From Candidatus Latescibacterota bacterium (GTDB taxonomy: Bacteria > Latescibacterota > UBA2968 > GCA-2709665), in contig OZ250150.1 in assembly GCA_965237675.1 (NCBI GenBank), positions 5,056,001 to 5,120,000 of the forward strand: 64,000 bases of DNA, written 5' to 3'. Below, piece after piece: positions 5,771 to 60,545 of the stretch (positions are counted from its first letter, which is position 1; each line of letters begins with the position of its first letter). The position numbers were made by a program, and so were the translations under genes. Under the pieces are notes generated by a model that saw only the letters and a program-made list of their open reading frames with translations, made no database searches and was not told the DNA's origin.

Positions 5771-6751
5771 CTATAGAACACCCGCGGCTCGAAGAACCGT
5801 TTCCTGCACGATCAATTCATGATCCAGAGACCGGACCGTCGGTTTCCGGCCTCTGATCTCCGCGACCATAGACCGCAAACTCCCGACGTACCTCGGTTCG
5901 ACCTCAACGGGCACCGTCTGCCATCCCTTGTTGAAGCCGTCGCGAGCCTCGTCCAGACAGAGGCGTACCTCCGGGTCCGGCTCGAGCGGCTCCATTACGA
6001 TGCTCCCTCGCGTGCCGTACACTTCGAACCGCCGCGACGGAAAGGCGGACACCTCCAATGCGGAAGACTCGACGATCGCCAACGCGTTTTCATATTCAAA
6101 AATCGCCGCGGTATTATCCCTGAATGCCGGCACGGTTCCACGTTCGTTCCTCAGGAACGACGTTACCCTGTCCGGCCGTCCCAACACCGCAACGACGATA
6201 TCCATCAGATGGCATAGCAACTCAAACAGAATGCCGCCCTTATGTACGGCCAATCCCTCACGTCTGTCGTCGTCAACCCACGTGGACATCCGGCCCCGAA
6301 CGGAAAAAACGTCCCCGAGCCTGCCGGATTTGGCCCAGTCCAGGATAAATCGAAATCCGGCGTTGTACCGGAACATATACCCGAGCTGCAACAGCAGGCC
6401 CTTTTCCCTGGCCATGGCGACCAGAGCCTGAAATTTCTCCCAGTCATCCCCCGCCGGCTTGTCCAGCCAGACATGTTTGCCTCGCTCCAGCGCTTCGCGG
6501 GCGAATTCCAGATTCTGCGCTATCGCGCCTTCCACCGCGATAGCCGCGATGGACGCGTCGTCGAGCATGTCTTCCTTGGCCTCGAACCAGTTGACACCGT
6601 CGTACGCCTCGACTGCGCCTCGCGCCGCCCGCACGGACGGGTCCAGCTCATACACGCCGCAGAAAGACACGTCCGGATTGGCCTTCAATACTGCCGCCTT
6701 GCCCGCGGCGTGCGAATGCAGGATACCGTATTGCGCAAACTTGACTTTCAT
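5771..6751 (-). CDS. Gfo/Idh/MocA family oxidoreductase
   Basis: GKHVWLDKP, LGYMFRYN, CHLMD; start placed at MKVKFAQYG after GGAAGG. Confidence 0.88.
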   Translation of the reverse strand: MKVKFAQYGILHSHAAGKAAVLKANPDVSFCGVYELDPSVRAARGAVEAYDGVNWFEAKEDMLDDASIAAIAVEGAIAQNLEFAREALERGKHVWLDKPAGDDWEKFQALVAMAREKGLLLQLGYMFRYNAGFRFILDWAKSGRLGDVFSVRGRMSTWVDDDRREGLAVHKGGILFELLCHLMDIVVAVLGRPDRVTSFLRNERGTVPAFRDNTAAIFEYENALAIVESSALEVSAFPSRRFEVYGTRGSIVMEPLEPDPEVRLCLDEARDGFNKGWQTVPVEVEPRYVGSLRSMVAEIRGRKPTVRSLDHELIVQETVLRAAGVL

Positions 6752-6893
6752 ATTTCCTTCCAGCGTGTGACAGCAGAGAGTCCCGGCAGACCGGATCTCT
6801 TCCGGACTTACAGGTAGCAACTCACCGTGTGCTCCGGGAGCATCGGGGCACGCGTTATCCCTGTCGACGATACGATTCCCTCTGGCATGACCC

Positions 6894-7047
6894 TTAACAG
6901 TCCGTTGATAAAGTTGCTCTGCGGGCGAGGTCCAGTGTCCCGTCCCAGAAATATGTTACCATTCATCCGCCGATTCATCCCGTCTCGCTGCGTTGCCTTC
7001 GCTCGGCGGCCGAATTTCGGCAATCTATTTTCGGGACAGAACACTAG
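6894..7047. repeat. MITE-like repeat, copy 1: one end of the outer element fused to an internally deleted inner CTAG element
   Basis: Reverse-complement match to 12096-12300 and 45718-45885; inner part 6932-7047 is 52 nt shorter than copy 3. Confidence 0.85.
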
Positions 7048-8018
7048 AACGGTGTCTGTACGCCCAGTTCCGCCGCAACCTTTTCCAGGTCCCTCTGGTG
7101 ATCGGGCCCGATCGGAATCCCCTCAATAACCCAGGTACGCTCCCGTTCCCATTCCAGGGCCCCCGGAAGCAGCGCGCGGTCCTCGCCCGGAAACGGTTGA
7201 AGTCCTCGCACGGCGGCTATAAAGTCATCCATCTGCCGACGAAACGCTTCCGGCGGCGCAAAACCGGAAATATCCACAGCCAGAATAAACGATCCCTGGT
7301 TTACCGCCGGCCACTCCGGCTGCGCCTCCTCCGCCGTCTGTATCCCCGCCAGCAGACCTCCCAGCGCGTGACAGACCGCACCCAGACCGAGACTCTTGAA
7401 AAACGAGGAGGGCATGCGATGGAAGATCGTCTCGAATTCCGCGTTCCCGGCCAACGCGACACCCGTTGACATGTCCAGAACCAGCGGATGCTCCCTGCCC
7501 GATGGAATTGCGAAACTCATCGGCGATGCGCCGTTGGCGGACATGATTCCTTGCGTTGACGGCAGACGCCGGACGTGCGACGACACGACAAATCCGGCCA
7601 TGCCGGCGCCGGATATTACCCGGGAATATTTGCCGGCCGCGCCAAAATGGTGATGATTGCGGGTCGCCACCGCTGCCAGTCCCGAAGCCCTGGCCTTCTC
7701 CACGGCGAGGTGGGCCGCGCGCCACGAAGCAAAATGACCCAACCCTCCGTCCCCATCGATCGTACCCGTCGTTGAGGTCTGATGCACAACGGATACATCC
7801 GGGTTGGGATTCAGGTCGCCGTCGCGCAGGAGACGCAGGTAGCGCGCGGACTGTCGCGTCCCGTGACTGAACACGCCCCGTATATCGGTACCCACAAGCA
7901 GTTCGGCCATCAGCCGCGCCCGGTCTTCGGACATATCCACCCGCCGATACATGTCGAACACAAAAGCCCGCATGTCCTCCGGCATCACCCGTACGAATTC
8001 CACGGGAACGACATTCAC
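7044..8018 (-). CDS. Ldh_2 family oxidoreductase (malate/L-lactate/ureidoglycolate dehydrogenase-like)
   Basis: DIRGVFSHG, DGDGGLG, RNHHHFGA, LVLDMST, LPGALE. Confidence 0.88.
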   Translation of the reverse strand: MNVVPVEFVRVMPEDMRAFVFDMYRRVDMSEDRARLMAELLVGTDIRGVFSHGTRQSARYLRLLRDGDLNPNPDVSVVHQTSTTGTIDGDGGLGHFASWRAAHLAVEKARASGLAAVATRNHHHFGAAGKYSRVISGAGMAGFVVSSHVRRLPSTQGIMSANGASPMSFAIPSGREHPLVLDMSTGVALAGNAEFETIFHRMPSSFFKSLGLGAVCHALGGLLAGIQTAEEAQPEWPAVNQGSFILAVDISGFAPPEAFRRQMDDFIAAVRGLQPFPGEDRALLPGALEWERERTWVIEGIPIGPDHQRDLEKVAAELGVQTPF

Positions 8019-8060
8019 GCCATATCCCTCCCGGGACCTGCCCCAAAAAAAGACCGGGAC

Positions 8061-8747
8061 CTACATGATCCCATACCGGTCAAACGCCTCTCGCGCGGAC
8101 GTCCCGCCTTCAATCGCCTGCCTAACCCGGTTCTCTCCCCGAACTTTATCCAACGCCCGGTTAATGACGTCAGTCTCGGCGTCTTTAGGGACAATCACCA
8201 CGCCATCCAGATCTCCGAACACGATGTCACCCGGAGACACCGCGGCTCCGTTTGAAAATGTGAGCGCACATCGGTAGTCGACCACGCGCCCCCGGATTCG
8301 CTGGTCCTGCGCATATCGACCGGCGCAGAACGTCGGGAAATTCAATTCCAGTATTCCCCGAGTGTCGCGGCTGAATCCGTCCAGAACGGCGCCAGCGGCG
8401 CCCAGCTTCATCGCCCTCGTACTCATCAGCTCACCCCAGAGCGCATAGGTGGGCGATGCCCCTGTACATATATAGACTTCGTTCGCGGCCAGATCATCGA
8501 GCGCCTCGAACTTCAAGCCGAACGGCCGGTCGCCGTCCGCGGAACGGATTGACCGGTCCGCGTTATCGGCCTCCAGGACCGGCATCGCCCGGCCCGTGAC
8601 GACCATATCTTCCCGCAGTGGCTGAATCGCCGGTGGCAGAAACTGCCTGACCAGACCCACCTCATCCATCACGTCGCCCACCACGGCGGTGAACAGTTCG
8701 CGCTCCATCAGCTCAAAAAGGCCGGCATCGTCCCGCCATTCCGCCAT
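8061..8747 (-). CDS. RraA family protein (HMG/CHA aldolase-like)
   Basis: TAVVGD, WGELMS, DGFSRD, PGDIVFGDLDGVVIVP; start at MAEWRDD inferred. Confidence 0.88.
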   Translation of the reverse strand: MAEWRDDAGLFELMERELFTAVVGDVMDEVGLVRQFLPPAIQPLREDMVVTGRAMPVLEADNADRSIRSADGDRPFGLKFEALDDLAANEVYICTGASPTYALWGELMSTRAMKLGAAGAVLDGFSRDTRGILELNFPTFCAGRYAQDQRIRGRVVDYRCALTFSNGAAVSPGDIVFGDLDGVVIVPKDAETDVINRALDKVRGENRVRQAIEGGTSAREAFDRYGIM

Positions 8748-8902
8748 AACGTCGGTCTCCGCAACTCCGTTTTTGCTTAAGTTGGCCAAAGCGGGATCGG
8801 ATAATCCGACCGATGAACCGGAAACATCGGGCACCGATAGCCGGCCGGTCCCGATCCGGCGACCACCTTTCGCGCCCACCCGGATTCAAGGGCATCAGGG
8901 CA

Positions 8903-11872
8903 CTACCATCTGGTTTCGTACGTCCGCACGACGCGAAATTGCCGCCCCACCTCAAAGTCGTAAACAAACCCCTTCGAATAGTCCATGTCGTCGACCATTC
9001 CCCTTACGAAATCCACGTTCCCCAGGTCGATCAGCGTTCCGCCCGCCTCCCGGCGGATCTCGTGAATCCGATAAGTCGAATCGCGTTCGTTATCGTTGTC
9101 GATGGAAATGAATCCGCCGTTCAGCGGATCCGCAGGCGGCTCCGCGGAGGTCCAGATTCGGCCCGGCTCGCACGCTTCCACCCTGCCCCGCCACACCCCT
9201 GACGGCTTCCGAATGGATCGTTCCCGGGTGCCCAGTACCGTGCCCCCCACCAGTACGGCCCAACGGGCTTTGCCGTCCACCTCCGAATAGACACCCAAAT
9301 GCCCGTCAAACATGATTCGTCCGTCCACCTGTACGCAAGAAACACCGTCGCCGAAAATCAACGTATCGACACGGCCACCAGGCAGTTGAACCCTCAGTGA
9401 CCTGCCGGGCCCGGATATATCGACCTCTTCGGCGGAACGGACAACACGGCAGCCGTCATAGGCTTCGATCAGACTCAGAAACGTGGAATCAAGCCCGCCG
9501 CCCCCCTCGTGCGAGGCCACCCCGTAGGTCAATCGCCGCGGGTTTCCCGGTTTGTTCTGTGGCGGATCCCCGTGGCACACGGCCACTTCGCCGGGCGGAT
9601 CGAACAGACTCCACCGCAAGTGTACATCGGTCTTCAACGGCGCGCCTGCGGCACGGGAATGGGCCCGGACCTTCCAGGTATCTTTCACCCTCCAGTCCAC
9701 CGATACAACGCTATCGGGCGCAGGGCAACGCCGAACATCGTAGAGATACTGGAAGCCGCTTCCCTTATATCCGGATAAATCCACGACCGTCCCGTCGTAG
9801 AACTCGCCGAAACCGACATCCTCCCCTGCGTAGGTCCCGCGGGCTTGCGGCTGCAAGACCATTCCCGCCGTCTCCACTTCACCCTCTGCCGCATGAAACA
9901 TAAAATGGTGTGAACCCCCGCCGGACACGCGGAAGAGATCGGCGACATAGAAATCCCGTTCCGACACCCGAACCAGAACGCTCCGCCGCCCGTAGGCCGA
10001 ACACTGCGGATATACATCCGTGGACGACACGGAGACGACCTGAACATTGTCTGTCATTCCGACAAAATCGACCTTTCCGGAATAGGTGCCTTTCTGCGGG
10101 CTTCGATCCACCAATACCGTGTTGTGCGAAACCGTGTGATTTGTCCAGCCCGACCGTTTGGGCCAAACGCGGGCGTGTTCGGGATAACCAAGGTCCGGTA
10201 ACAAGTCCAGGCCGAAGGCGTAAAGGCCCAGATTGAGGCGATCCGCGTGCCCATGGCCCATGTTGCGCCCATAATATAGCCACAGCGTCCGTTCGAATTC
10301 CCCCTGGCCGTCGCGCAGCATGGCCAGGCCATATCCCGTCATCACGTCTGAAGACAATCGGAGCGGACCGTGCCTGTCGACCAGCGCCGCGATTTGGGCC
10401 CGTATCCCCTCCGGGTCCGGGTCCGTAATCGCTCCGTGCACCTTTGATAGATCGCCCTCCGCCAGGTGGCTTATCGCCTGCGCCAGTTCGGTGTCGCCGA
10501 ACATCTCAAACCCGTATAGACACTGCTCCATATCCACGCCGGCCAATCCGGGACTGCCTGTACTGCCGCTGTCTCCAATGGAGGGGACATAGCGATTCAG
10601 CGCCGTCAACCGCATAAACGCCAGGTACATCTGGCGGTATCGGGCGAAAACGCCAATCCTGTGGCGCGTATACGACGGCCGTGACCCAAGAATCATCTCC
10701 AGCGACCGCATCCCGAGCGGCCACCTCAGCCATCCGAGACTATATCCCGGCGCGCCCTCCGAACCCACACCATCCCGATCAATCTCACGGGCGAAAAGCA
10801 GAGGAATGTGTCCTCCGGTGGGCTGCCGGCCCATCAGGAATCCCTCCCGAAAGATCCAATCCAACCTTTCATCCGTACGATCGTCGTTCAGTGCGACGGC
10901 CAATAAGGCCATGGTGGCCTGATCGCCTGGCTCGTTATGGTGAATGTCACCCTGCAGGATGGCCTCGACTCCTTCACGCAAGACATGGTTTTCAAAATGA
11001 GCGCACAACGCATCCGCTGTGTCCTGTTCGACCAGGCCATATTGCAGCTGTTTCGCTCCAAGAAATTGAAACAGCGCGTCTTCGTCCTTCCAGGCCGCAC
11101 GCACCAGATCGAAGCACTCGGCAAACGCCTTCAGCAGGCCGGGCTCCCAGATTCGACCGTAAATCCGACCCCGGCCGCTCAGTCCGTCGGAATTGAAGAA
11201 ACCCTGCCGGGCCCAGAACGACCAGTCCATCCCGGGGTAAACGTCCGCGATCCGGGCAAGCAGCACCCCCGCCTTGTGGGCATAAATGCGGTCTCCCGTC
11301 AGCAGAAACGCCTCCCCGAACGCCCTGCAGGCCGAATTGATCTCCGACCAGATCCCATAGTGTGCGTAAACCCCCACCAGTTTGAACGACTCTCCTGCCT
11401 CGTCCCTCCATCCCATCCCGTCGTCTACTGCGAACATGTGCTTCGCATCTTCAGGATCCGGATGGTTGGCGTTAAAGAGAAGCGTCCTATCTGCACGATC
11501 AGGGTGGAATAGCCCGTCTTCGCCGATTCCACTTCGGTAAAATGCCTCGAAATCGTTGGTCGGAAAGCGCCCTTTACACGAGGGACACATGATTTTCCAC
11601 GGATCCGCGATTACATCCACGCTGAAGTGTCCTCCATACCGGTAGATCTCACTGCCGCACTGCGGGCAACCCTTTTCGACGCTCGCATTCGTGCTCCGCC
11701 CGATCGTCTGGCCGGTCACCATCGCCCAAAGCTTGTCGTCGTCAAGACGCGCCCATCGTTGCACCTGCGCCACGGCAGCATCCCGCCGGGCAGCCGCCCA
11801 ATCGAACCGCGACACATTTCGCCGGGCGTTCCTCACCTGCTCCGGCGTCACCAACTGCCCGCCGCCCCTCAT
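8903..11872 (-). CDS. Heparinase II/III family protein (putative polysaccharide lyase)
   Basis: GHGHADRLN...DLGYP and HTVSHNTVLVD motifs; RBS AAGGAGG before ATG 11872; N-terminal CPQC/CPSC. Confidence 0.8.
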   Translation of the reverse strand: MRGGGQLVTPEQVRNARRNVSRFDWAAARRDAAVAQVQRWARLDDDKLWAMVTGQTIGRSTNASVEKGCPQCGSEIYRYGGHFSVDVIADPWKIMCPSCKGRFPTNDFEAFYRSGIGEDGLFHPDRADRTLLFNANHPDPEDAKHMFAVDDGMGWRDEAGESFKLVGVYAHYGIWSEINSACRAFGEAFLLTGDRIYAHKAGVLLARIADVYPGMDWSFWARQGFFNSDGLSGRGRIYGRIWEPGLLKAFAECFDLVRAAWKDEDALFQFLGAKQLQYGLVEQDTADALCAHFENHVLREGVEAILQGDIHHNEPGDQATMALLAVALNDDRTDERLDWIFREGFLMGRQPTGGHIPLLFAREIDRDGVGSEGAPGYSLGWLRWPLGMRSLEMILGSRPSYTRHRIGVFARYRQMYLAFMRLTALNRYVPSIGDSGSTGSPGLAGVDMEQCLYGFEMFGDTELAQAISHLAEGDLSKVHGAITDPDPEGIRAQIAALVDRHGPLRLSSDVMTGYGLAMLRDGQGEFERTLWLYYGRNMGHGHADRLNLGLYAFGLDLLPDLGYPEHARVWPKRSGWTNHTVSHNTVLVDRSPQKGTYSGKVDFVGMTDNVQVVSVSSTDVYPQCSAYGRRSVLVRVSERDFYVADLFRVSGGGSHHFMFHAAEGEVETAGMVLQPQARGTYAGEDVGFGEFYDGTVVDLSGYKGSGFQYLYDVRRCPAPDSVVSVDWRVKDTWKVRAHSRAAGAPLKTDVHLRWSLFDPPGEVAVCHGDPPQNKPGNPRRLTYGVASHEGGGGLDSTFLSLIEAYDGCRVVRSAEEVDISGPGRSLRVQLPGGRVDTLIFGDGVSCVQVDGRIMFDGHLGVYSEVDGKARWAVLVGGTVLGTRERSIRKPSGVWRGRVEACEPGRIWTSAEPPADPLNGGFISIDNDNERDSTYRIHEIRREAGGTLIDLGNVDFVRGMVDDMDYSKGFVYDFEVGRQFRVVRTYETRW

Positions 11873-52063: not shown

Positions 52064-54337
52064 CTACTGTCGAATATCGAAATTGATGGCCGCCCTGCCC
52101 GTCTGCCCGCTGTTTTCGTCGGTAACCGTAATCTTCAACAACTGCATCCCCGGTACGGTCGCTTCCATATCCAGTTCAAGGTGAGCCCGTTCGTCGGACT
52201 GTGTTCCGACATGATCGTATTCGATGCTGATGACGTTGCCCTCCTCACGCTTCCCGATCAGCCGCCCCAGGCCGCCCAATATCCGAGCGCCCACGTTTGT
52301 CCGACGCAAGGACCGTATCTGGTAGGAAATACGATATCGTGTCGCCCCGAATTCATCACGCGTGAGGTTATAAATCTCGTAATAAATAAACACCGGCTCG
52401 CCAGGGCGGTACGCTTTGGACGCCATCGGGATTACCTCGATATCGCCCTTTATAAAGCGCCCCCGCTCCGCCACATCGATCCGGGCGCCCATTTCCACGT
52501 CGCTCAACGTCAATGCCGCCACAGGATACGCCTTCAAAATGCGATCTTCCCGGTATATCTGAGTCCTGCCGGAATTGCGGTCCATCACCTGCACGTCTAC
52601 CCGGTAGGCGCCCGGAGGCAACAGGAGGCGATCTATCGCCGGAATGAACGCCCCGGCCGACGTGTCCACCAAACCCGAAGCGCGCAGGGTCATTTCATCG
52701 TCCATCCGATACACGGGCCTATTCTCGCCGTCGTAGACCGCAACACCCCGGACAAGATGCGCCAACCGCCCGGCATCGCCATCACGAAACGTCAAATCAC
52801 GAGTTGGAATCCCATAATAGACCTCCATCGCCGTCTTGTCATCGTCGCCCCGAAAAGAGGCCGTATAGAAATAAAAGTCCAGCGGTCCCGTGGCAAATGT
52901 CGGACGATAGGCAGTCGGTTGCCGGGCTACCTGATTGAGCATCACGGTCTCGGGGTTCATTCTTTGCCAGATTCTTGCGATCCGTCCGGTTCCCAGGGGC
53001 ATTCTCGCGAACTCGTACGGACCGGGAAAATTCGGCTGCACAAAGGTCATTTCGATACCCTGCCCCACGTGGGCATAAATCCAGTACTCCCAAATCCCTC
53101 CCACAGGGTAGACCGGCCGACCCAGAATGGACGACTGTGCGACCTGTCCCAGGAATCGTACCTCTTCCTTGAGGAGCTTCGCGCCGGCCGCTCCCGCCGA
53201 CGCCAGCAGACGATCCTTGACCGCCAGTACCCTGGGATCCGTCTCGAACCGGATATCTCCGGACCGGCTGACATGATCCGGTTCCCCAAAACGCACATAC
53301 ACTTCCCCGCGGTCGTCCCACGGGAATTTGTGCTTTCCGTGATTCTCCCTTGCCGTGGCCACTCGGCGATAATGCTCAACCAGACGCTCATTGGCGGCCG
53401 ATGCCGGCGCCGGATCCTGCCAGACCCAGAATTCCTCTGCCGCGGCCATCACCTCCTCCAACGATTTGGCGTCGGCATCATCCGCGGTACGGGTTACCAG
53501 ACTCAAATCGAAATAGAGCCTCTGCTCCTTGGGTTCCAGACGGTCAATATAGGCTTCGAACAACGCCTCCGACCGATCGTAATCCCGACGCCTCTGGTGG
53601 ATATCCGCCAGTTCCAGCACCGCACGTCGCTGGTGTGGGTTCCGGTTCTGGAACACCGCCTTCAGTTCAGCGATCGCCTGATCGGTCCGATCCTGCAGTT
53701 TCAGGACAACCCCCAGCCGCAACCGTGCCTCGTAGTGGTGTGCATTCGCCGAAATCTGATTCAGGTAGGCCTTTTCGGCATTCCCGTACTCGCCCTTGGT
53801 TTCTTCAATCACGCCAATCTGGAAAAACGCATCCGGGTGGCCCGGGTCCATTTTGACCACCTTGCGGTAGGCCCTGAGCGTTTCGCTGCTGCCGAACTGC
53901 CGGTACGTCTCAGCCAGATTGTACTGTGCTTCGACATAGGCCTTATCCGCCCGCAGCGCGTTCCGAAACGCATCGATCGCCTGACGAAGCCCTTTGGGTC
54001 GGCTGCGGAAGACGAGGCCCAGGCCGTTGAAGGCGGGCGCAAACCGCTTTTTTTTACGTAGCGCCTGCCGGAACATCTTTTCTGCCGCATCCAGATCGCC
54101 CCGTTGGAGATGGATGTGCCCGAGACCCACATAGGACGGCGCATGTTTGTCGTAAACGTCAATGGCCGATTGAAACGATTCGGCCGCCCGCTCGGACGCT
54201 CCCTCAGCCACCTGCGCGATCGCCTGTTTGTAAAGCGCCTCAGCCCGGGCGCGAGCGTCGTTGCCTTCGTCTCGCGCCTGTGCCGCCCCGACAAGCGCGA
54301 ACACCGTCCAGAACAACAGGGGCAGCCGCCTCATCAC
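52064..54337 (-). CDS. TPR + GWxTD-domain exported protein
   Basis: Signal peptide, TPRs, FWVWQDPAPASAANERLVEHYRR, PWDDRGEVYVRFGEPD, C-terminal VFIYYEIYNL. Confidence 0.85.
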   Translation of the reverse strand: MMRRLPLLFWTVFALVGAAQARDEGNDARARAEALYKQAIAQVAEGASERAAESFQSAIDVYDKHAPSYVGLGHIHLQRGDLDAAEKMFRQALRKKKRFAPAFNGLGLVFRSRPKGLRQAIDAFRNALRADKAYVEAQYNLAETYRQFGSSETLRAYRKVVKMDPGHPDAFFQIGVIEETKGEYGNAEKAYLNQISANAHHYEARLRLGVVLKLQDRTDQAIAELKAVFQNRNPHQRRAVLELADIHQRRRDYDRSEALFEAYIDRLEPKEQRLYFDLSLVTRTADDADAKSLEEVMAAAEEFWVWQDPAPASAANERLVEHYRRVATARENHGKHKFPWDDRGEVYVRFGEPDHVSRSGDIRFETDPRVLAVKDRLLASAGAAGAKLLKEEVRFLGQVAQSSILGRPVYPVGGIWEYWIYAHVGQGIEMTFVQPNFPGPYEFARMPLGTGRIARIWQRMNPETVMLNQVARQPTAYRPTFATGPLDFYFYTASFRGDDDKTAMEVYYGIPTRDLTFRDGDAGRLAHLVRGVAVYDGENRPVYRMDDEMTLRASGLVDTSAGAFIPAIDRLLLPPGAYRVDVQVMDRNSGRTQIYREDRILKAYPVAALTLSDVEMGARIDVAERGRFIKGDIEVIPMASKAYRPGEPVFIYYEIYNLTRDEFGATRYRISYQIRSLRRTNVGARILGGLGRLIGKREEGNVISIEYDHVGTQSDERAHLELDMEATVPGMQLLKITVTDENSGQTGRAAINFDIRQ

Positions 54338-54564: not shown

Positions 54565-55530
54565 TCACATCACGTCGCCCCGCTCCATACGCTCGAACAG
54601 GGGCCAATAATCCCGTATCCACACCAATGCCCGATCGTTGGACCGTTCCAGGTACGCGATTCGCATCCACAGAGTCAGGCCCCTCAGAACCGCCAGTCGC
54701 AGCGCATCGGAAAGCAGGGATTTCTCCTTTCCGGTCAATGCCGCCTCGTCATCGTACGCCCGCAAGAATGCAGCCATCTCCTCCCGTGTGAGCGGACTGT
54801 CCGCAACCACCGCCTGAAAAAACGCCAGGGCGTAAGCCAGATCACACAGCCGCGCGGCAAGACATGCCGTATCCAGATCCAGCACAGCGGCCACCCTCCC
54901 GCCCCGAAACAGCAGGTTCTGCGCACGGTAGTCCCCGTGAATAACCACGTGCCGCAATTCCGCCCATTCTCCTGCGCCTGCGCAGCTACCCAATACACTC
55001 CGAAAACGCTTCAACTCGGGGGCCACATCGCCCAATTTATCCAGCGCGCCCCATGTGGCCTCGAGTTCTCGCAAAACGCACTTATAGACGGGCTCGCCGG
55101 TCTGTCCCCCGGAAGCCGACATTCCAGATCCGATGGTATGAATCCTGCCCAACATCGCACCCGCATGTCCAATCTGCGCCAAATCGTGCGGCGTAAAGGC
55201 CTCGCCTTCGACGAATGTCCATAACTGAAACAGATTCTCACCCTCAACGACCAGAGTCATCCCATCTGTTGTGGAAATCAGTTCCGCCACGGGAATTCCC
55301 GAATCTCGCAACCGATCGCTCAACTGCGCGCCGAAACTTATCCGGTCGGCGGCCACCACGTCACTGTCGAATACTTTCAGCAAATAAGCCTCGGCGCCTC
55401 TCGTCAGGCGAACCGTCGTACTCGTCAGTCCGAACCGGACGTGATCCACCAGAACACGCAGACCGTACCGACGGAACACGATGCTCACAATCCGTTCCAA
55501 AGGCATCCGCAGGCTACTCCGGTACGCCAC
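54565..55530 (-). CDS. APH/type II homoserine kinase-like phosphotransferase
   Basis: YLLK, Brenner motif HGDYRAQN, VLDLD; overlaps the lysR 3' end. Confidence 0.85.
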   Translation of the reverse strand: MAYRSSLRMPLERIVSIVFRRYGLRVLVDHVRFGLTSTTVRLTRGAEAYLLKVFDSDVVAADRISFGAQLSDRLRDSGIPVAELISTTDGMTLVVEGENLFQLWTFVEGEAFTPHDLAQIGHAGAMLGRIHTIGSGMSASGGQTGEPVYKCVLRELEATWGALDKLGDVAPELKRFRSVLGSCAGAGEWAELRHVVIHGDYRAQNLLFRGGRVAAVLDLDTACLAARLCDLAYALAFFQAVVADSPLTREEMAAFLRAYDDEAALTGKEKSLLSDALRLAVLRGLTLWMRIAYLERSNDRALVWIRDYWPLFERMERGDVM

Positions 55531-56443
55531 GGCCGCCCCCTTCGGGTATACGCAGCCCCATCGTGTCCAGATGTATCTCCAAGAACCCTAGAAACGATGC
55601 GGCCGCACGCGAGAGATGCCCTCCTTCACGCCGCACCATCCCCACCTTGCGGACCGGAAGCCCCAACACTCGAAGCGCCGCCAGCCTGCCCGATCTCACT
55701 TCGTCCCGAACCGCGACTTCGGGAACGATCGCGATCCCCAGTCCAATCTCCACGAACCGCTTGATCACTTCAATGCTGCCCAACTCCATCGTAACCTGCG
55801 GCATAAGCCCGGCCTCGGCAAACATCCGATCCATCAACCCCCTGCTCGTACTGCCCCGCTCCAGCATCAGCATCGCACAGGTGCTCAGCGAATGCAGATC
55901 GACCGCGTCCTTACAGGCGAGGGGATGGCTTGCACCGCAAATGGCAACATCTTCTCTCAAAAAGAACGGTCTCGTCCTCACCCTGGGTTCAGTTACCGGT
56001 AACGTGGCCAGCCCGAAATCCACCGCACCCTCGAATACCAGCCGCACTACCTCCGGCGACATCCGGTCCGTGAGGCGGATCTCGACACCTGGATACGCCT
56101 GTCGAAATGCTTTTACTGCGGGGGGCAACACATAGGCGCAATTCGTGTCGCTAGTGCCGATACACAGCCGGCCCGTTCGCAACTCACCGAGAGCCGCCAG
56201 ATCCTGGCGGACCTGCTCGGTCATTTCAAGAATGGTTTCGGCACGTGATAACAGAAGCCGGCCGGCCTCGGTTAACAGAATCTGCTTGCCCCGGCGCTCA
56301 AAAAGCTTTTCTCCGAGCTCGTCTTCAAGTGCCTTCACCTGAAGACTCACGGCGGGCTGTGTCAGAAACAGTTTCCCCGCGGCACGGGTAAAGCTCTTCT
56401 CTCGCGCTGTTTCGACAAACCCCTTCAGGCGATCCAGGTCCAT
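55514..56443 (-). CDS. LysR family transcriptional regulator
   Basis: SFTRAAGKLFLTQPAVSLQVKALEDELGEKLFER helix-turn-helix. Confidence 0.95.
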   Translation of the reverse strand: MDLDRLKGFVETAREKSFTRAAGKLFLTQPAVSLQVKALEDELGEKLFERRGKQILLTEAGRLLLSRAETILEMTEQVRQDLAALGELRTGRLCIGTSDTNCAYVLPPAVKAFRQAYPGVEIRLTDRMSPEVVRLVFEGAVDFGLATLPVTEPRVRTRPFFLREDVAICGASHPLACKDAVDLHSLSTCAMLMLERGSTSRGLMDRMFAEAGLMPQVTMELGSIEVIKRFVEIGLGIAIVPEVAVRDEVRSGRLAALRVLGLPVRKVGMVRREGGHLSRAAASFLGFLEIHLDTMGLRIPEGGGRGVPE

Positions 56444-56530
56444 ATGGCGGTCTCCGGCGTAACGCGTTGTCTGGCCGATCATCACTCTCGAGCCTCCCCG
56501 TCCGATCGATCGGGAGATTCCACAAGATAC

Positions 56531-56597
56531 TATAAATTATTAATATAACAAAGATAATATTAATAAATTTTACTTATTTATCCAGAAGCCGCATAAT
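56531..56597 (+). promoter_or_regulatory. Two LysR-type T-N11-A boxes plus promoter of the purA-like gene
   Basis: ATA-N9-TAT at 56532-56546 and ATA-N9-AAT at 56554-56568 (22 bp apart); TTTACT-17 nt-CATAAT at 56569-56597. Confidence 0.65.
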
Positions 56598-56695
56598 AGG
56601 TCCGGACATTGTCCAAGCATCCCCGGCGGTCAACCCGAACTTCGCGCCAACTCTCGACTCAAACCTCAACGCAACACTCGACCTGGAGGAATACC

Positions 56696-57706
56696 GTGTG
56701 TGCGACCATTGTTGTAGACGCGCTTTGGGGCGATTCCGGCAAGGGCAAAATTTCCGCCTATGCCGCCCTCAAGCAGAAAGCCGCCTTTTGTGTTCGCGCG
56801 GGCACCGGCACAAATGCCGGTCACAGCATCTACTTTGAAGACGGCTTCCAGATTCGAACCCACCAACTGTGCTGCGGCTGGCTATATCCAGGAACCTCGC
56901 TTCGGATCGGAAGCGGAGTCGCGGTAGATCCAGAGATCTTCCTCCGGGAAGTCCACGCCTACGGACTCGCCGGACGAGTAGGGGTGGATCTGCGCTGCCC
57001 GGTGATTACACCCGAACATCGCGCGCGGGAAGCCCAGGACCGGCATCTGGCTGCCGTCTTGGGCAGTGTCTGCATCGGCAGCGGCGCAGCCAGAGCGGAT
57101 TTTGTCCTGCGCCGCGCCCGGCAGGCGCGGGACATCCGGGAACTTGAGGATTACCTTACCGACGTACCGCGCGAGATCAACGCGGCCTGCAGTGAGGGCC
57201 GTGCCGTCATCATCGAATGCAGCCAGGGTACCCACCTTTCCCTGGCGCTGACCAGGGATTACCCCTTTTGCACTTCCGACAACTGCACCTCTGTTGCCGC
57301 GGCAGACGACGTGGGCCTGAATTGGCAGTTTATCAAAGAGGTCATCCTGGTCGTTAAAGCCGTGCCCAGTCGCGTCGGCGAGGGCCCTCTGCCGTTCGAA
57401 ATGGGAATTGGTGAACAGGATAGGCGAGGTATTGCCGAATACGGTGTGACCACCGGCCGACGTCGCAGAAAAGCCCATGGGATCTCCTGGCCGCACTTTG
57501 AAGAGGCGGTAATACTCAACGGGCCCACCCAGATCGCCCTCACTTTTTGCGACCACCTTGACCCCGGCGTACGGGGCGCGCGGAAGCCGGAGGCGCTCAC
57601 GGAACCGGTTCTGGAACTGATTCGCGAGGTGGAAACACGCGCAAGAGTACCGGTAACCCTCGTGGAAACGGGAAAGTATTTCGGAGACATCGTAGACCTA
57701 TCATAG
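56696..57706 (+). CDS. purA: Adenylosuccinate synthetase family protein, short archaeal type (divergent paralogue)
   Basis: WGDSGKGK, NAGH, SQG, YPFCTS, RVGEGP, EYGVTTGRRRR; 336 aa; GTG start after GGAGG. Confidence 0.85.
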   Translation: MCATIVVDALWGDSGKGKISAYAALKQKAAFCVRAGTGTNAGHSIYFEDGFQIRTHQLCCGWLYPGTSLRIGSGVAVDPEIFLREVHAYGLAGRVGVDLRCPVITPEHRAREAQDRHLAAVLGSVCIGSGAARADFVLRRARQARDIRELEDYLTDVPREINAACSEGRAVIIECSQGTHLSLALTRDYPFCTSDNCTSVAAADDVGLNWQFIKEVILVVKAVPSRVGEGPLPFEMGIGEQDRRGIAEYGVTTGRRRRKAHGISWPHFEEAVILNGPTQIALTFCDHLDPGVRGARKPEALTEPVLELIREVETRARVPVTLVETGKYFGDIVDLS

Positions 57707-57999
57707 CGGAGTTGATTGCACACACAGAACGAGCGGATTTTCGGTTTGAAAATCCGCCCATCATAACCTTCGGCGACCAACCGTCCAATGCCAACTCTCT
57801 ACCCACCTCCCTCGCAGGTCGGGTGGAAGAAGGACCGGCAGACCTCGTAACGCCGCTGAGTCACTTGCCTTCCCGGTATTGCAGGGTATTCGACGGGGTG
57901 CCATCCTCCATCGATGGGGGTGGCGGCAGGCCCCCTTCCGAACAACATGACCCGTACCCGCCAGCGCCCCGCGCCGAGACCCGCGGTATCCAAGCCGCG

Positions 58000-58296
58000 C
58001 TAATTCCTTCTGTTACGCCCACTACCGACTATTGCCAGCCATGCCGACTCGTAGTCTAAGAGCGCGGTCCGCCATGCGTCGCGGTCTCCAAGACCGCGTT
58101 GCAACTCCAGCGCCAGTGCATCGACGGTCTGCTCGGCTGCATCGACGGTTGCCAGCCGTTCCGCATCCACTGTATGCAGGGCGACACCGTTAAGCTCCGT
58201 TTGTATGCGTTCCACAACCCGGCGAAAGTCTTCGCTCAAGCTCGTAAGTGCGCCCGTGCCGGTGACCTCGCCCTGATGCACTGCATGGTCAGACAT
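58000..58296 (-). CDS. Small hypothetical helical protein
   Basis: 98-aa ORF with strong RBS AAGGAGG. Confidence 0.6.
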   Translation of the reverse strand: MSDHAVHQGEVTGTGALTSLSEDFRRVVERIQTELNGVALHTVDAERLATVDAAEQTVDALALELQRGLGDRDAWRTALLDYESAWLAIVGSGRNRRN

Positions 58297-58430
58297 ATCG
58301 GACCTCCTTGCCCGGGTTTTAAATGGGTCCTCGTTACGGCATCTTGCATAACATATATACTAAACAAATGTGCAGCTGTCAAGCTGATTCAATGGGTTTA
58401 ATTGTTTAAAATTAAATTATTTACGATTAA

Positions 58431-60118
58431 CCCGATTAATTCATGAATCGTCAGATAGAGCATTTTAAGGAAGCAGAAAGAGCTTCCGAGTGAGACAAGA
58501 AACGAAAGCGCATGGGCTGTGACGGATTTGGCGTGTTCAAGCCGTTTGGGCGGCGCCTGCTTTGCCTCGTGACGTCAGGTTGACCTCGATGCCCGTGTCA
58601 AGCGCACAGACTTCTCCATGACCTTTGGTGGTGGTCGATGCAAATGTGAAGGCGGGGTCAGCACGTCGATGGGTTATGGAACACCCGTTGCCAGATTATA
58701 GAGGATCTTGCCATAAAGGTGTTTGAGTGGAAACGCCGTTGGCAGATGGAACTTGATTTTAGTTTTCAACTCACAAACGCGCCCGGCGACTTTCAAGAGA
58801 CGATTTTGCAGGGTATTGAACTGTGCGTTGGTCCACTTCGTGCCGCGCAATCCGATTGCAGCCAGGCTGTGCATCAGGACATAGGCGGCGCTGTGGAGAA
58901 AGAGACGGAAGTGATTGGCCTGGAAGGTGTGACAAGAGGTGCGATCGGAATGGAGAAAGGTCTTGTGATTTTTGATGAAGTTTTCCATCCTGCCGCGTGT
59001 GCAATAGGCGGTTTTGTAGATGAATGACGGTTGGGCGCGCTTCAGGTTGGTGACCACGAATCGGATATTGACACCTTGCGGTGTCACTTCCGCCTTGCAG
59101 ACGATGCGTTGTGGACACGCCCAGGTGCCGGCCTGATAGGCCCAACAGCGATAAAGGCGCACGGTTTCTCCGGAATCGGCATACCGCGTTTTGGCCTGGT
59201 CTATCAAGGACTGTGCCTTCCGCAGGAGTTTGGCGTTGCCGTTCTGTCCGAGGACAAAATACACATCTTCTTCCTCACACAACACGTGCACTTCCGGACA
59301 CGAAAAATGCGCATCGCCACGTAACAGGATCTCCACGTCGGGCCAGGCTTTACGCAGGTAGGCGATCACCCGTTTGAGGATGGTGACGATCTCTTTACCC
59401 GCAGGCCGCCTGCCAGGACGCAAGACCGTCGTGATCAACTTGCCGGTTTGGCCTTCATAGATATGCAGGGGCTGGTAGCAATAGCCATTGAAATACGCAT
59501 TGAACAACGACAACTGTTGAGACCCATGCACCTTGTCTTCGGTGTCATCGATGTCCAACAGAATGGCTTCCGGCGGTTCCTCATACGAGGCGACAAACAC
59601 ATCCGCAAAGGCCTTGGCGATCCGATACAAATCGGTTCTGCTGATGCGGTTCTCGAACCGACTCATCGTGGGCTGACTGGCCAGGTCCGCGCCAGACAAC
59701 GGCAACCGATCACAGGCCGCCTTGAAGCCGGGGTCCTCGCGTAACGTCTTGCAATCATTCGCATCCTCATACCCACAGGCCATCTGAAAGACACGTTGTT
59801 TGATCAGGTCCATCATCGAATGATGTACGTAACTTTGATGTCGATGATCGGTGAGCGCCGCAACCATCCGATGCAAAATGCCGACATTGGCCTCGACCTC
59901 ACGAAGCAGCATCACCCCGACGTCGGTCGTCAGCACGCCCCCGTCGAACGTGGCTTCTACCTGCCTACCAGAAAGACTTGCGAAAGACAACCTGTGATGT
60001 TTATCTTGAACTCCCACGGTAGTTTCCTCCTGTTTCATTGTTATTAGGTTATTTGCGTAACCATAATATAATACAATGACTTGGGTATGGAAACTACCTT
60101 TTTTGTGAATTATTCAGG
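58431..60118 (-). mobile_element. IS1380 family insertion sequence (1688 bp)
   Basis: Inverted repeats CCCGATTAATTCATGAA / CCTGAATAATTCACAAA; TTAA on both sides (58427-58430 and 60119-60122). Confidence 0.9.
58674..60038 (-). CDS. IS1380 family DDE transposase
   Basis: FDGGVLTTD, GYEDAND, LASQPTMSRFEN, LDID, RGDAHF, RGRMENFIK. Confidence 0.95.
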   Translation of the reverse strand: MKQEETTVGVQDKHHRLSFASLSGRQVEATFDGGVLTTDVGVMLLREVEANVGILHRMVAALTDHRHQSYVHHSMMDLIKQRVFQMACGYEDANDCKTLREDPGFKAACDRLPLSGADLASQPTMSRFENRISRTDLYRIAKAFADVFVASYEEPPEAILLDIDDTEDKVHGSQQLSLFNAYFNGYCYQPLHIYEGQTGKLITTVLRPGRRPAGKEIVTILKRVIAYLRKAWPDVEILLRGDAHFSCPEVHVLCEEEDVYFVLGQNGNAKLLRKAQSLIDQAKTRYADSGETVRLYRCWAYQAGTWACPQRIVCKAEVTPQGVNIRFVVTNLKRAQPSFIYKTAYCTRGRMENFIKNHKTFLHSDRTSCHTFQANHFRLFLHSAAYVLMHSLAAIGLRGTKWTNAQFNTLQNRLLKVAGRVCELKTKIKFHLPTAFPLKHLYGKILYNLATGVP

Positions 60119-60545
60119 TTAAGCGTACTGTGTCACAGATACATCAACTTCGAGTTCAACGGCTGGTAGCGGTCGCATGCCCCGAAATACGCCCGGTCGT
60201 GTGAATTAACTTTGCACAGGCCGTCCTTCTCTCATATATTGGGTGACGAGCCTTCCGGAAAGACTAAAGAGCGTCTGTGGATTGGATATGGGGTCGATGC
60301 CCGTCTCTCAGTACGTCTGGCCGCGGTCCGGGATCATGGCCGATTTCTACCACGACCGGCTGTGTTCGACGATCGCGTGGACGAATCGCCTTTGCCCGTT
60401 GTCACGGCTTTGAGGCGGAATCGGGTGCCTGCCTCAGTGACCTGTTCTGACAATATACGATTCGCCCGGAAGCTGTCTCTGATTCCGGGCACCTCCATCG
60501 GCACCGTTTTGTAATTTCATCTCGATTGGAAGGAGGAGAACAGCC

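Follow-up and report, generated by a model that had tools for sequence, protein, structure and literature searches.

Textbooks present adenylosuccinate synthetase (PurA) as a single-copy enzyme, and it is a target of drugs and herbicides. Extra PurA-family copies standing beside the housekeeping PurA occur in nucleoside-antibiotic pathways, i.e. ToyG (toyocamycin) and ForA (formycin), and ToyG works with a GMP-reductase-like partner. Among the functional offshoots of the family, phage PurZ, which rewrites DNA chemistry, is to our knowledge alone in having been well studied. The described proteins with which the present locus can be compared are the canonical bacterial PurA (NCBIfam models TIGR00184 and NF002223), the short PurA of Pyrococcus horikoshii (337 aa; 2D7U and 5K7X; NF003295), and the phage proteins PurZ (phiVC8, 6FM1; S-2L, 7ODX) and PurZ0 (Gordonia phage Archimedes, 7VF6). 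PurZ and PurZ0 are described as phage genes acting on dGMP (PMC8342488; PMC12884076). The subject of this study is a 64,000-nucleotide stretch of the genome of a Candidatus Latescibacterota bacterium (assembly GCA_965237675.1, contig OZ250150.1, positions 5,056,001 to 5,120,000; hereafter the window), which contains at 56696..57706 (+) a gene for a short, 336-aa PurA-family ligase with Asp at position 8 and the P-loop GDSGKG (hereafter S-type; E. coli PurA numbering). As judged from sequence comparison, this gene is somewhat likely to specify a conditionally expressed adenylosuccinate synthetase isozyme that acts on IMP.

The coding sequence (CDS), stop codon included, begins with GTG at 56696 and lies within an open reading frame (ORF) spanning 56609..57706 (+), which yields 336 aa when read from that GTG. 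A Shine-Dalgarno sequence (GGAGG, 56685..56689, +) is located six bases 5' of the GTG and is invariant in an alignment of nine loci. This arrangement of start codon and Shine-Dalgarno sequence is kept in eight close relatives, whereas the upstream extension of the ORF is not, and the coordinates given in an earlier note on this DNA are therefore correct. The motifs quoted in that note are all present in the translation, namely GDSGKG (residues 12-17), NAGH (40-43), LGSVCIGSG (122-130), ECSQG (174-178), TTGRRRR (252-258), and LTFCD (282-286). The protein scored 164.4 bits against Pfam PF00709 (cut-off 27), which places it in the superfamily and rules out a chance ORF. The gene is under purifying selection, the ratio of nonsynonymous to synonymous substitution rates (dN/dS) being 0.096-0.125 in comparisons with seven relatives.

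Among proteins of known structure, the top sequence match is P. horikoshii PurA (2d7u/5k7x), with a full-length alignment of 252 bits and 40% identity; the two proteins are alike in length, and neither carries the insertions of the long PurA. The same protein in complex with GTP, IMP, and hadacidin (5k7x_A) was also the best structural match, at that identity, to an AlphaFold2 model built from a 20-sequence clade alignment (predicted local distance difference test score, 88.2; predicted template modelling score, 0.90), with a template modelling (TM) score of 0.93 and a root-mean-square deviation of 1.9; the PurZ0 and PurZ structures followed with TM scores of 0.82-0.86. In the alignment with P. 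horikoshii PurA, GDSGKG, NAGH, and LGSVCIGSG stand opposite GDEGKG, NAGH, and IGTTGSGCG, and ECSQG, TTGRRRR, and LTFCD stand opposite EGTQG, TGRRRR, and VTMLD. The two proteins agree in the catalytic Asp and His, the aspartate loop, and the guanine-specifying Asp, and the earlier claim that the equivalents of Asp13 and His41 and the aspartate loop are retained was borne out. The LTFCD sequence, which had been presented as an altered GTP motif, is indeed there, yet it differs little from the reference, as VTMLD in the archaeal short PurA is likewise without the Lys of an NKxD-type motif. In contrast to the P. horikoshii enzyme, the protein has Asp8/Ser14 instead of Gly8/Glu14, carries the motifs TSxNCT, DDVGLxW, and TFCDH, and falls outside the group formed by short and long PurA; compared with archaeal short PurA in general, it is bacterial, is encoded by a second gene copy linked to a LysR-family regulator, and scores below the NF003295 cut-off.

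Throughout, we take the conserved columns, R303 excepted, to have the catalytic and ligand-binding roles assigned to them in E. coli PurA. Catalytic Asp13 and His41, Lys16 of the P-loop, Gln224, Arg143 at the dimer interface, Arg303/Arg305 of the aspartate loop, and Asp333, which specifies guanine, are all kept in the protein, and these residues are at least 93% conserved in its 120 closest homologues. In the P-loop, Ser replaces the Glu14 of GDEGKG. R303 contacts the O2' of IMP and aspartate (PMC8342488), and the equivalent Arg is among the residues kept. The protein shares its superfamily and conserved residues with canonical bacterial PurA but is shorter by ~90 aa. None of the models for PurA at the equivalog level (EC 6.3.4.4) was reached: the best NCBIfam model was that of the short archaeal PurA, NF003295 (322-323 bits; cut-off 368), followed by TIGR00184 (205 bits; cut-off 395.55) and NF002223 (152 bits; cut-off 402).

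The extent to which the motif changes are fixed was examined in a close set comprising the best 120 homologues (58-86% identity) from a word-indexed protein search, in which 8000 candidates were scored and 1059 proteins were found at E<=1e-10. Among the columns with a conservation of 80% or more in short as well as canonical PurA, the close set (n=120) differed consistently at three only, i.e. position 8 (Gly to Asp, 119/120), position 14 (Glu to Ser, 120/120), and position 186 (Gly to Ser or Thr, 120/120); Glu14 is present in all 27 sampled short and canonical PurA sequences. The close set retains Asp13, Lys16, the Asn and His of NAGH (His in 112/120), the dimer-interface Arg (120/120), the Gln of ExxQG, the Thr of YPxxTS, the Val of RVG, the arginines of GRxRR, and the guanine-specifying Asp, and the protein under study has all of them. 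Beside the substrate loops, TSxNCT, DDVGLxW, and TFCDH are invariant residues of the clade's own. It had been asked earlier whether GDSGKG and GSV define a clade. The former does, being present, with Asp8 as its partner, in 121 of 121 sequences including the query, but the latter does not, since Thr and Val alternate at the Thr129 site among close homologues; nor do ECSQG and the exact phosphate-loop sequence characterize the clade, as EGSQG (81 sequences), ECSQG (26), and ESSQG (12) alternate as well.

The two P-loop-associated changes are coupled. Over 127 aligned rows, 86 have Gly8/Glu14 and 38 have Asp8 with a residue other than Glu at position 14 (S, C, T, G, or N), whereas Gly8/Ser14 occurs once and Asp8/Glu14 not at all; two rows have a gap at position 8. 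In eight phylogenetically independent pairs (starred branches of the tree), seven differed in the same direction, none in the opposite direction, and one showed no difference (sign test, p 0.016). The same pairing is found in solved and enzymatically characterised PurZ proteins, those of S-2L (7odx) and phiVC8 (6fm1), which have Asp8 and GSTGKG (Thr14), while PurZ0-type phage proteins have Gly8 and GSEAKG (Glu14). On the simplest reading, a carboxylate can come from either position 8 or position 14, and the change at Glu14 thus looks like a relocated carboxylate rather than a lost function, so that GDSGKG would be no sign of lost or altered chemistry. The argument of the earlier note that the altered motifs point to a substrate other than IMP is accordingly not supported as it stands: Asp8 with non-Glu14 has arisen repeatedly and independently, also in characterised PurZ, and GDSGKG alone gives no indication of a new substrate.

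One sub-branch of the clade, comprising sequences from Chloroflexota, Longispora, and others, has NAGA instead of NAGH, i.e. Ala at the site of the catalytic His41 (8/120 of the close set), with the other active-site residues kept. The NAGA type was recorded in proteins P0083, P0099, P0101, P0123, P0113, P0117, and P0094 and at loci L060, L063, L064, L069-L071, L073, L074, L078, L080-L083, L093, L102, L105, and L108.

An exhaustive search of representatives identified 6413 family members (E<=0.001), whose P-loops include GDEGKG, GSEGKG, GSTGKG, GGEGKG, GDGGKG, and GDSGKG. Two trees were constructed, one quick, with 127 rows, and one careful and unrooted, with 61 rows (IQ-TREE, LG+C20+F+G4 by posterior mean site frequency, with ultrafast bootstrap and Shimodaira-Hasegawa-like approximate likelihood ratio test supports), and the two agree. 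In the careful tree, the group containing the query consists of 25 rows and is set off by a branch of length 0.6 with support of 100/100. On the opposite side of this branch are canonical PurA (seven rows, 100/100), the short PurA sequences that pass NF003295, and a PurZ-like group of 15 rows (100/98), which includes three phage reference proteins; PurZ therefore groups with PurA and away from the S-type clade. The PurZ0-type phage references, with Gly8 and GSEAKG, also fall in the PurZ-like group, and the match between 7vf6 and the query is 68.5 bits. The earlier description of the protein as archaeal-type thus fits its fold and length but not its phylogenetic position. Ten PurZ-like representatives with GSEGKG (P0188, P0196, P0202, P0209, P0213, P0224, P0253, P0257, P0261, and P0263) are 465-540 aa long and have an extra N-terminal domain of ~120-200 residues.

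Source names in the S-type clade include Gemmatimonadota, Latescibacteria, Chloroflexota, Longispora albida, and a metagenome-assembled genome (MAG) labelled Blastochloris, and its proteins carry the public labels 'adenylosuccinate synthetase' or 'hypothetical protein'. No description of a GDSGKG or short bacterial PurA clade, or of the coupling between positions 8 and 14, was found in the open literature searched, a body that leaves aside subscription papers and supplements, such as the alignment figures of PMC8342488, which may bear on the coupling.

The source genome (5.6 Mb in three contigs), whose nearest named relatives are MAGs labelled Latescibacterota or Gemmatimonadota, also encodes a canonical PurA of 427 aa (G000:C1:817684-818940, locus L001; 615 bits with PF00709 and 626 bits with NF002223). 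The short gene is therefore a second copy, as the earlier note had proposed, and not the only purA of the genome. This canonical PurA has the unusual P-loop GDEGKAK, with Ala at the last Gly of the family. In a survey of 168 genomes of the phylum, in which the short form was counted at E<=1e-20, canonical PurA was near-universal (160/168), whereas the S-type was present in 52/168, mostly in two families (f1, 14/21; f4, 34/76) and rarely elsewhere. Internal stops interrupt the short-form copies of G043, G149, G062, G151, and G121. Identity to the source copies was 80-85% for the short form and 91-95% for canonical PurA within the genus, 74 and 77%, respectively, in G042, and 62-66 and 62-64%, respectively, in family f4. 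Since the divergence of the short form tracks that of canonical PurA across families, the short form is, as judged from these identities, an ancient, vertically transmitted gene of this lineage that has repeatedly been lost, and a recent transfer is ruled out.

The short PurA-like gene is divergent from a gene for a LysR-family transcriptional regulator (55514..56485, -; PF00126, 75 bits; PF03466, 178 bits). An orthologue of this regulator occupies the same divergent position in all eight close loci and in 12 of 14 loci in which the PurA-like protein is 62-75% identical (13 from the second family plus L035 from the source family). More widely, 97 loci were examined, i.e. 80 from metagenomes and 17 from genomes (the latter already counted in the close and distant sets). 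Of these, 76 encode an intact N-terminus, and in 27 of the 76 a LysR gene is located no more than two genes away from the PurA-like gene. The 210-bp intergenic region shared by the two genes contains an AT-rich block (56530..56581) that accounts for the majority of invariant columns in the nine-locus alignment and is nearly invariant, while its flanks vary. Within the block lies a perfect inverted repeat, TTAATAT-N10-ATATTAA (56540-56563), which is a candidate LysR-type operator to which the regulator may bind. A sigma-70-like promoter match, TTTACT-17-CATAAT (56569..56597, +), faces the PurA-like gene; it is a consensus match, and the scan yielded three sites versus 0.6 expected in shuffled sequences. 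The region thus has the sequence arrangement of a divergent LysR operon, an adjacent regulator gene combined with a conserved dyad in the shared region. An Rfam scan of 56300-56800 detected no riboswitch or leader RNA at E<=1, and a terminator scan of 56300-58100 detected no terminator. The word 'inducible', which the earlier note had attached to a possible second PurA, is plausible in light of the divergent LysR gene and the conserved operator-like block.

On the reading that we favour, the gene product would be an active aspartate ligase of the adenylosuccinate synthetase superfamily that depends on GTP, works as a dimer, and would convert IMP, L-aspartate, and GTP into adenylosuccinate, IMP being the presumed substrate. 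It would represent a deep-branching bacterial S-type clade in which the carboxylate of the P-loop Glu14 has given way to Ser and an Asp has been gained at position 8. Transcription would start from the promoter shared with the divergent LysR gene, presumably under the control of its product; the conditional role is suggested by the combination of an accessory second copy and this shared promoter. Candidate inducing conditions may be limitation of purines or adenine, or relief from an inhibitor or feedback effector acting on the main enzyme.

The use of IMP is further suggested by the gene neighbours of other, more distant clade members, which include several genes of ordinary purine and aspartate metabolism. 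PurN-like formyltransferases are encoded at L050, L053, and L064 (the L064 protein, at 148.7 bits, falls short of the TIGR00639 cut-off of 150.1), and aspartate kinase is encoded at L065, L066, and L085. Short GMP-reductase-like genes abut the ligase gene in L087-L089 and L100, and a radical-SAM-like gene, the ligase gene, and a gene for IMP dehydrogenase (IMPDH) stand in a row in L099. L100 has GDSGKG, whereas L087-L089, L097, L099, and L101 have Gly8 with GDEGKG and are nested inside the clade. A GMP-reductase-like gene immediately upstream would be expected if the ligase consumes IMP. The same neighbour would also fit a deazapurine conversion of the toyocamycin type, and by description it recalls the partnership of ToyG; deazapurine, C-nucleoside, or other nucleoside-antibiotic biosynthetic genes of the kind expected for a ToyG or ForA pathway were not seen within ~8 kb on either side of the present gene in the window. 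L089 and L100 look phage-like, with matches to HNH endonuclease and tail-protein PHROGs, and the clade members linked to GMP reductase or IMPDH may form a phage module that shifts guanine nucleotides toward adenine nucleotides. On these metagenome contigs, the intervals concerned are 5999-8065 (L087-L089), 5999-7755 (L100), and 5956-9475 (L099). A TrmB-family regulator gene is located directly upstream of the ligase gene in five loci, four of which are of the NAGA type, the fifth, L057, being without a readable NAG motif. A phage origin of the short PurA-like gene was considered and rejected: a tblastn search of phage records returned 159 records, all with <60% identity (best, 31.7%), and a scan of IMG/VR with the clade alignment returned three loci (best, 34%).

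At the source locus, the LysR gene is followed by a gene for a phosphotransferase of the APH family (homoserine-kinase-like; 54565..55530, -; PF01636, 94 bits; best NCBIfam model homoserine kinase, 79 bits versus a cut-off of 271). The two genes share 17 bases at the end of the LysR gene and are probably transcribed together. The kinase gene is a variable accessory; it is present in L005 alone among the eight close loci and in L035, and its family ('fam14') was found in 5 of the 76 loci. Further genes are inserted between the LysR and PurA-like genes of some relatives, i.e. those for a Cof-type HAD phosphatase (L030, L036, and L037), a TehB/TPMT-like methyltransferase (L030 and L033), and, in L030, a NUDIX hydrolase and an alpha/beta hydrolase. 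On the other side, all close relatives have a Peripla_BP_6 gene (507-562 aa) between the PurA-like gene and a gene for a xylose-isomerase-like TIM-barrel protein. At the source locus, its place in the disrupted interval (57707-60545) is taken by an insertion sequence (IS) with a DDE_Tnp_1_4 transposase gene (58674..60038, -; PF13701, 521 bits), which is the single IS copy in the window and not part of the system; no remnant of the Peripla_BP_6 gene was found in the window by tblastn (E<=1e-3). A 98-aa ORF between the ligase gene and the IS (58000-58296, -) has no Pfam or PADLOC match, and the small ORFs found there in relatives are weakly similar to a different ORF (58099-58401, +). Upstream of the kinase gene, a 757-aa tetratricopeptide repeat (TPR) protein with a GWxTD domain is encoded at 52064-54337 (-); it is kept in all close relatives and is unrelated to the finding. 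PADLOC, whose library covers phage defence and not antibiotic resistance, returned no match for the PurA-like gene or three neighbours.

Several observations weigh against the IMP-using isozyme and leave room for another substrate or a special regulation. The clade is deep and lies outside all bona fide PurA and PurZ-like sequences, so that a function cannot be transferred by descent from characterised members, and the failure to reach the equivalog cut-offs extends to all eight GDSGKG representatives scanned (245-356 bits on NF003295). The gene is strictly a second copy: the canonical enzyme is present in 51 of the 52 short-form carriers, the exception being G119, a genome that is 75% complete, so that the short form is never needed as the sole PurA. 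Its patchy spread and the internal stops in some copies suit a specialised rather than a core role. The query has Val at the site where Thr presumably contacts the IMP phosphate, and the Ala of the NAGA sub-branch does not easily fit the textbook chemistry of PurA in the proteins concerned. The variable nucleotide-hydrolase, phosphatase, methyltransferase, and kinase neighbours point in the same direction, since the inserted genes and the APH-family kinase are compatible with the handling of unusual nucleotides or xenobiotics.

These observations lend themselves to an alternative in which the enzyme applies PurA chemistry, i.e. phosphorylation of the 6-oxo group and its displacement by aspartate, to a non-canonical or xenobiotic 6-oxopurine nucleotide (e.g. 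XMP, a deoxy, thio, oxidised, or deaza form, or a nucleotide antibiotic) within a LysR-controlled salvage or detoxification regulon. Besides the depth and separateness of the clade and the accessory, sometimes decayed state of the gene, this alternative would account for the hydrolases, phosphatase, and methyltransferase under the same divergent promoter in relatives, for the APH-family kinase that neighbours the regulator gene at this locus as well as in L005 and L035, and for the clade's own TSxNCT, DDVGLxW, and TFCDH near the substrate loops together with the sub-branch that has no catalytic His. It is opposed by the constancy of the columns conserved throughout PurA, among them the Arg that reads the ribose O2' (PMC8342488), and by the compensating partner of the only universal P-loop change, a pair that is seen in active enzymes too. 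In addition, the accessory genes vary among lineages, the regulator alone being conserved with the gene, the metabolic neighbours of other clade members are ordinary purine and aspartate genes, and the surroundings of the gene are free of nucleoside-antibiotic genes over the ~8 kb already mentioned. On balance, we regard an IMP-analogue ligase as unlikely, although it is the most serious competitor of the IMP-using isozyme.

A special case of the IMP-using isozyme is an enzyme that replaces the housekeeping PurA as a target, being insensitive to an agent that blocks the latter and switched on by the LysR-family regulator when this happens. The blocking agent could be a natural product of the hadacidin, hydantocidin, or alanosine type, or an endogenous effector, e.g. 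(p)ppGpp, AMP, or GDP. Such a role is in line with a second copy that has its own regulator and with neighbours of antibiotic-kinase, hydrolase, and methyltransferase kinds in several lineages. The altered P-loop and the base-pocket motif TFCDH both belong to the GTP site, which we take to be the part of PurA that binds guanine nucleotides and alarmones. The case is circumstantial throughout, however; no inhibitor-producing context or resistance marker was seen, PADLOC with its phage-defence library gave no match, and this version of the isozyme is quite improbable.

A decaying or non-catalytic paralogue, which the patchy distribution and the internal stops in some relatives might suggest, is very improbable in view of the intact frame, the dN/dS of ~0.1, the active-site columns conserved over 120 homologues, and the conserved Shine-Dalgarno sequence and operator-like block. 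An enzyme of the PurZ or PurZ0 type making a 2-aminoadenine precursor from (d)GMP, with which the protein shares a short architecture and, in the case of PurZ proper, Asp8 combined with a small hydroxyl side chain at residue 14, as well as an F-C pair that precedes the base-specifying position (TFCDH versus NFCNY/NFAQY), can be dismissed almost entirely, as the earlier note had done, because the protein keeps Asp13 where PurZ0, solved PurZ, and all 15 PurZ-like representatives have Ser, lacks the PurZ insertion after RVG, has Asp and not the Asn of PurZ as the guanine-specifying residue, scores 107 bits on the PurZ model NF038379 (cut-off 300), lies outside the PurZ-like group, and has cellular neighbours, with no phage context and no datZ- or mazZ-like genes in the window.

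A broader proposal, which we offer tentatively and rate as rather unlikely, is that the superfamily contains a third functional class, the Asp8/Ser14 S-type, whose age equals that of the split between PurA and PurZ and which is placed under a dedicated LysR switch. Its members would be either ligases for 6-oxopurine nucleotides other than IMP or PurA enzymes insensitive to effectors or inhibitors, and the NAGA sub-branch would then have a variant mechanism.

Whichever substrate is used, a large bacterial clade annotated merely as 'adenylosuccinate synthetase' branches outside PurA and PurZ, with members in Latescibacterota, Gemmatimonadota, Chloroflexota, an actinomycete, and an alphaproteobacterial MAG. 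The coupling of Gly8/Glu14 versus Asp8/non-Glu14 provides a concrete structure-function rule for the whole family, PurZ included. Should the S-type enzyme prove to be insensitive or to use an alternative substrate, the consequences would extend to the control of purine pools, to resistance to PurA inhibitors, and to automated annotation.

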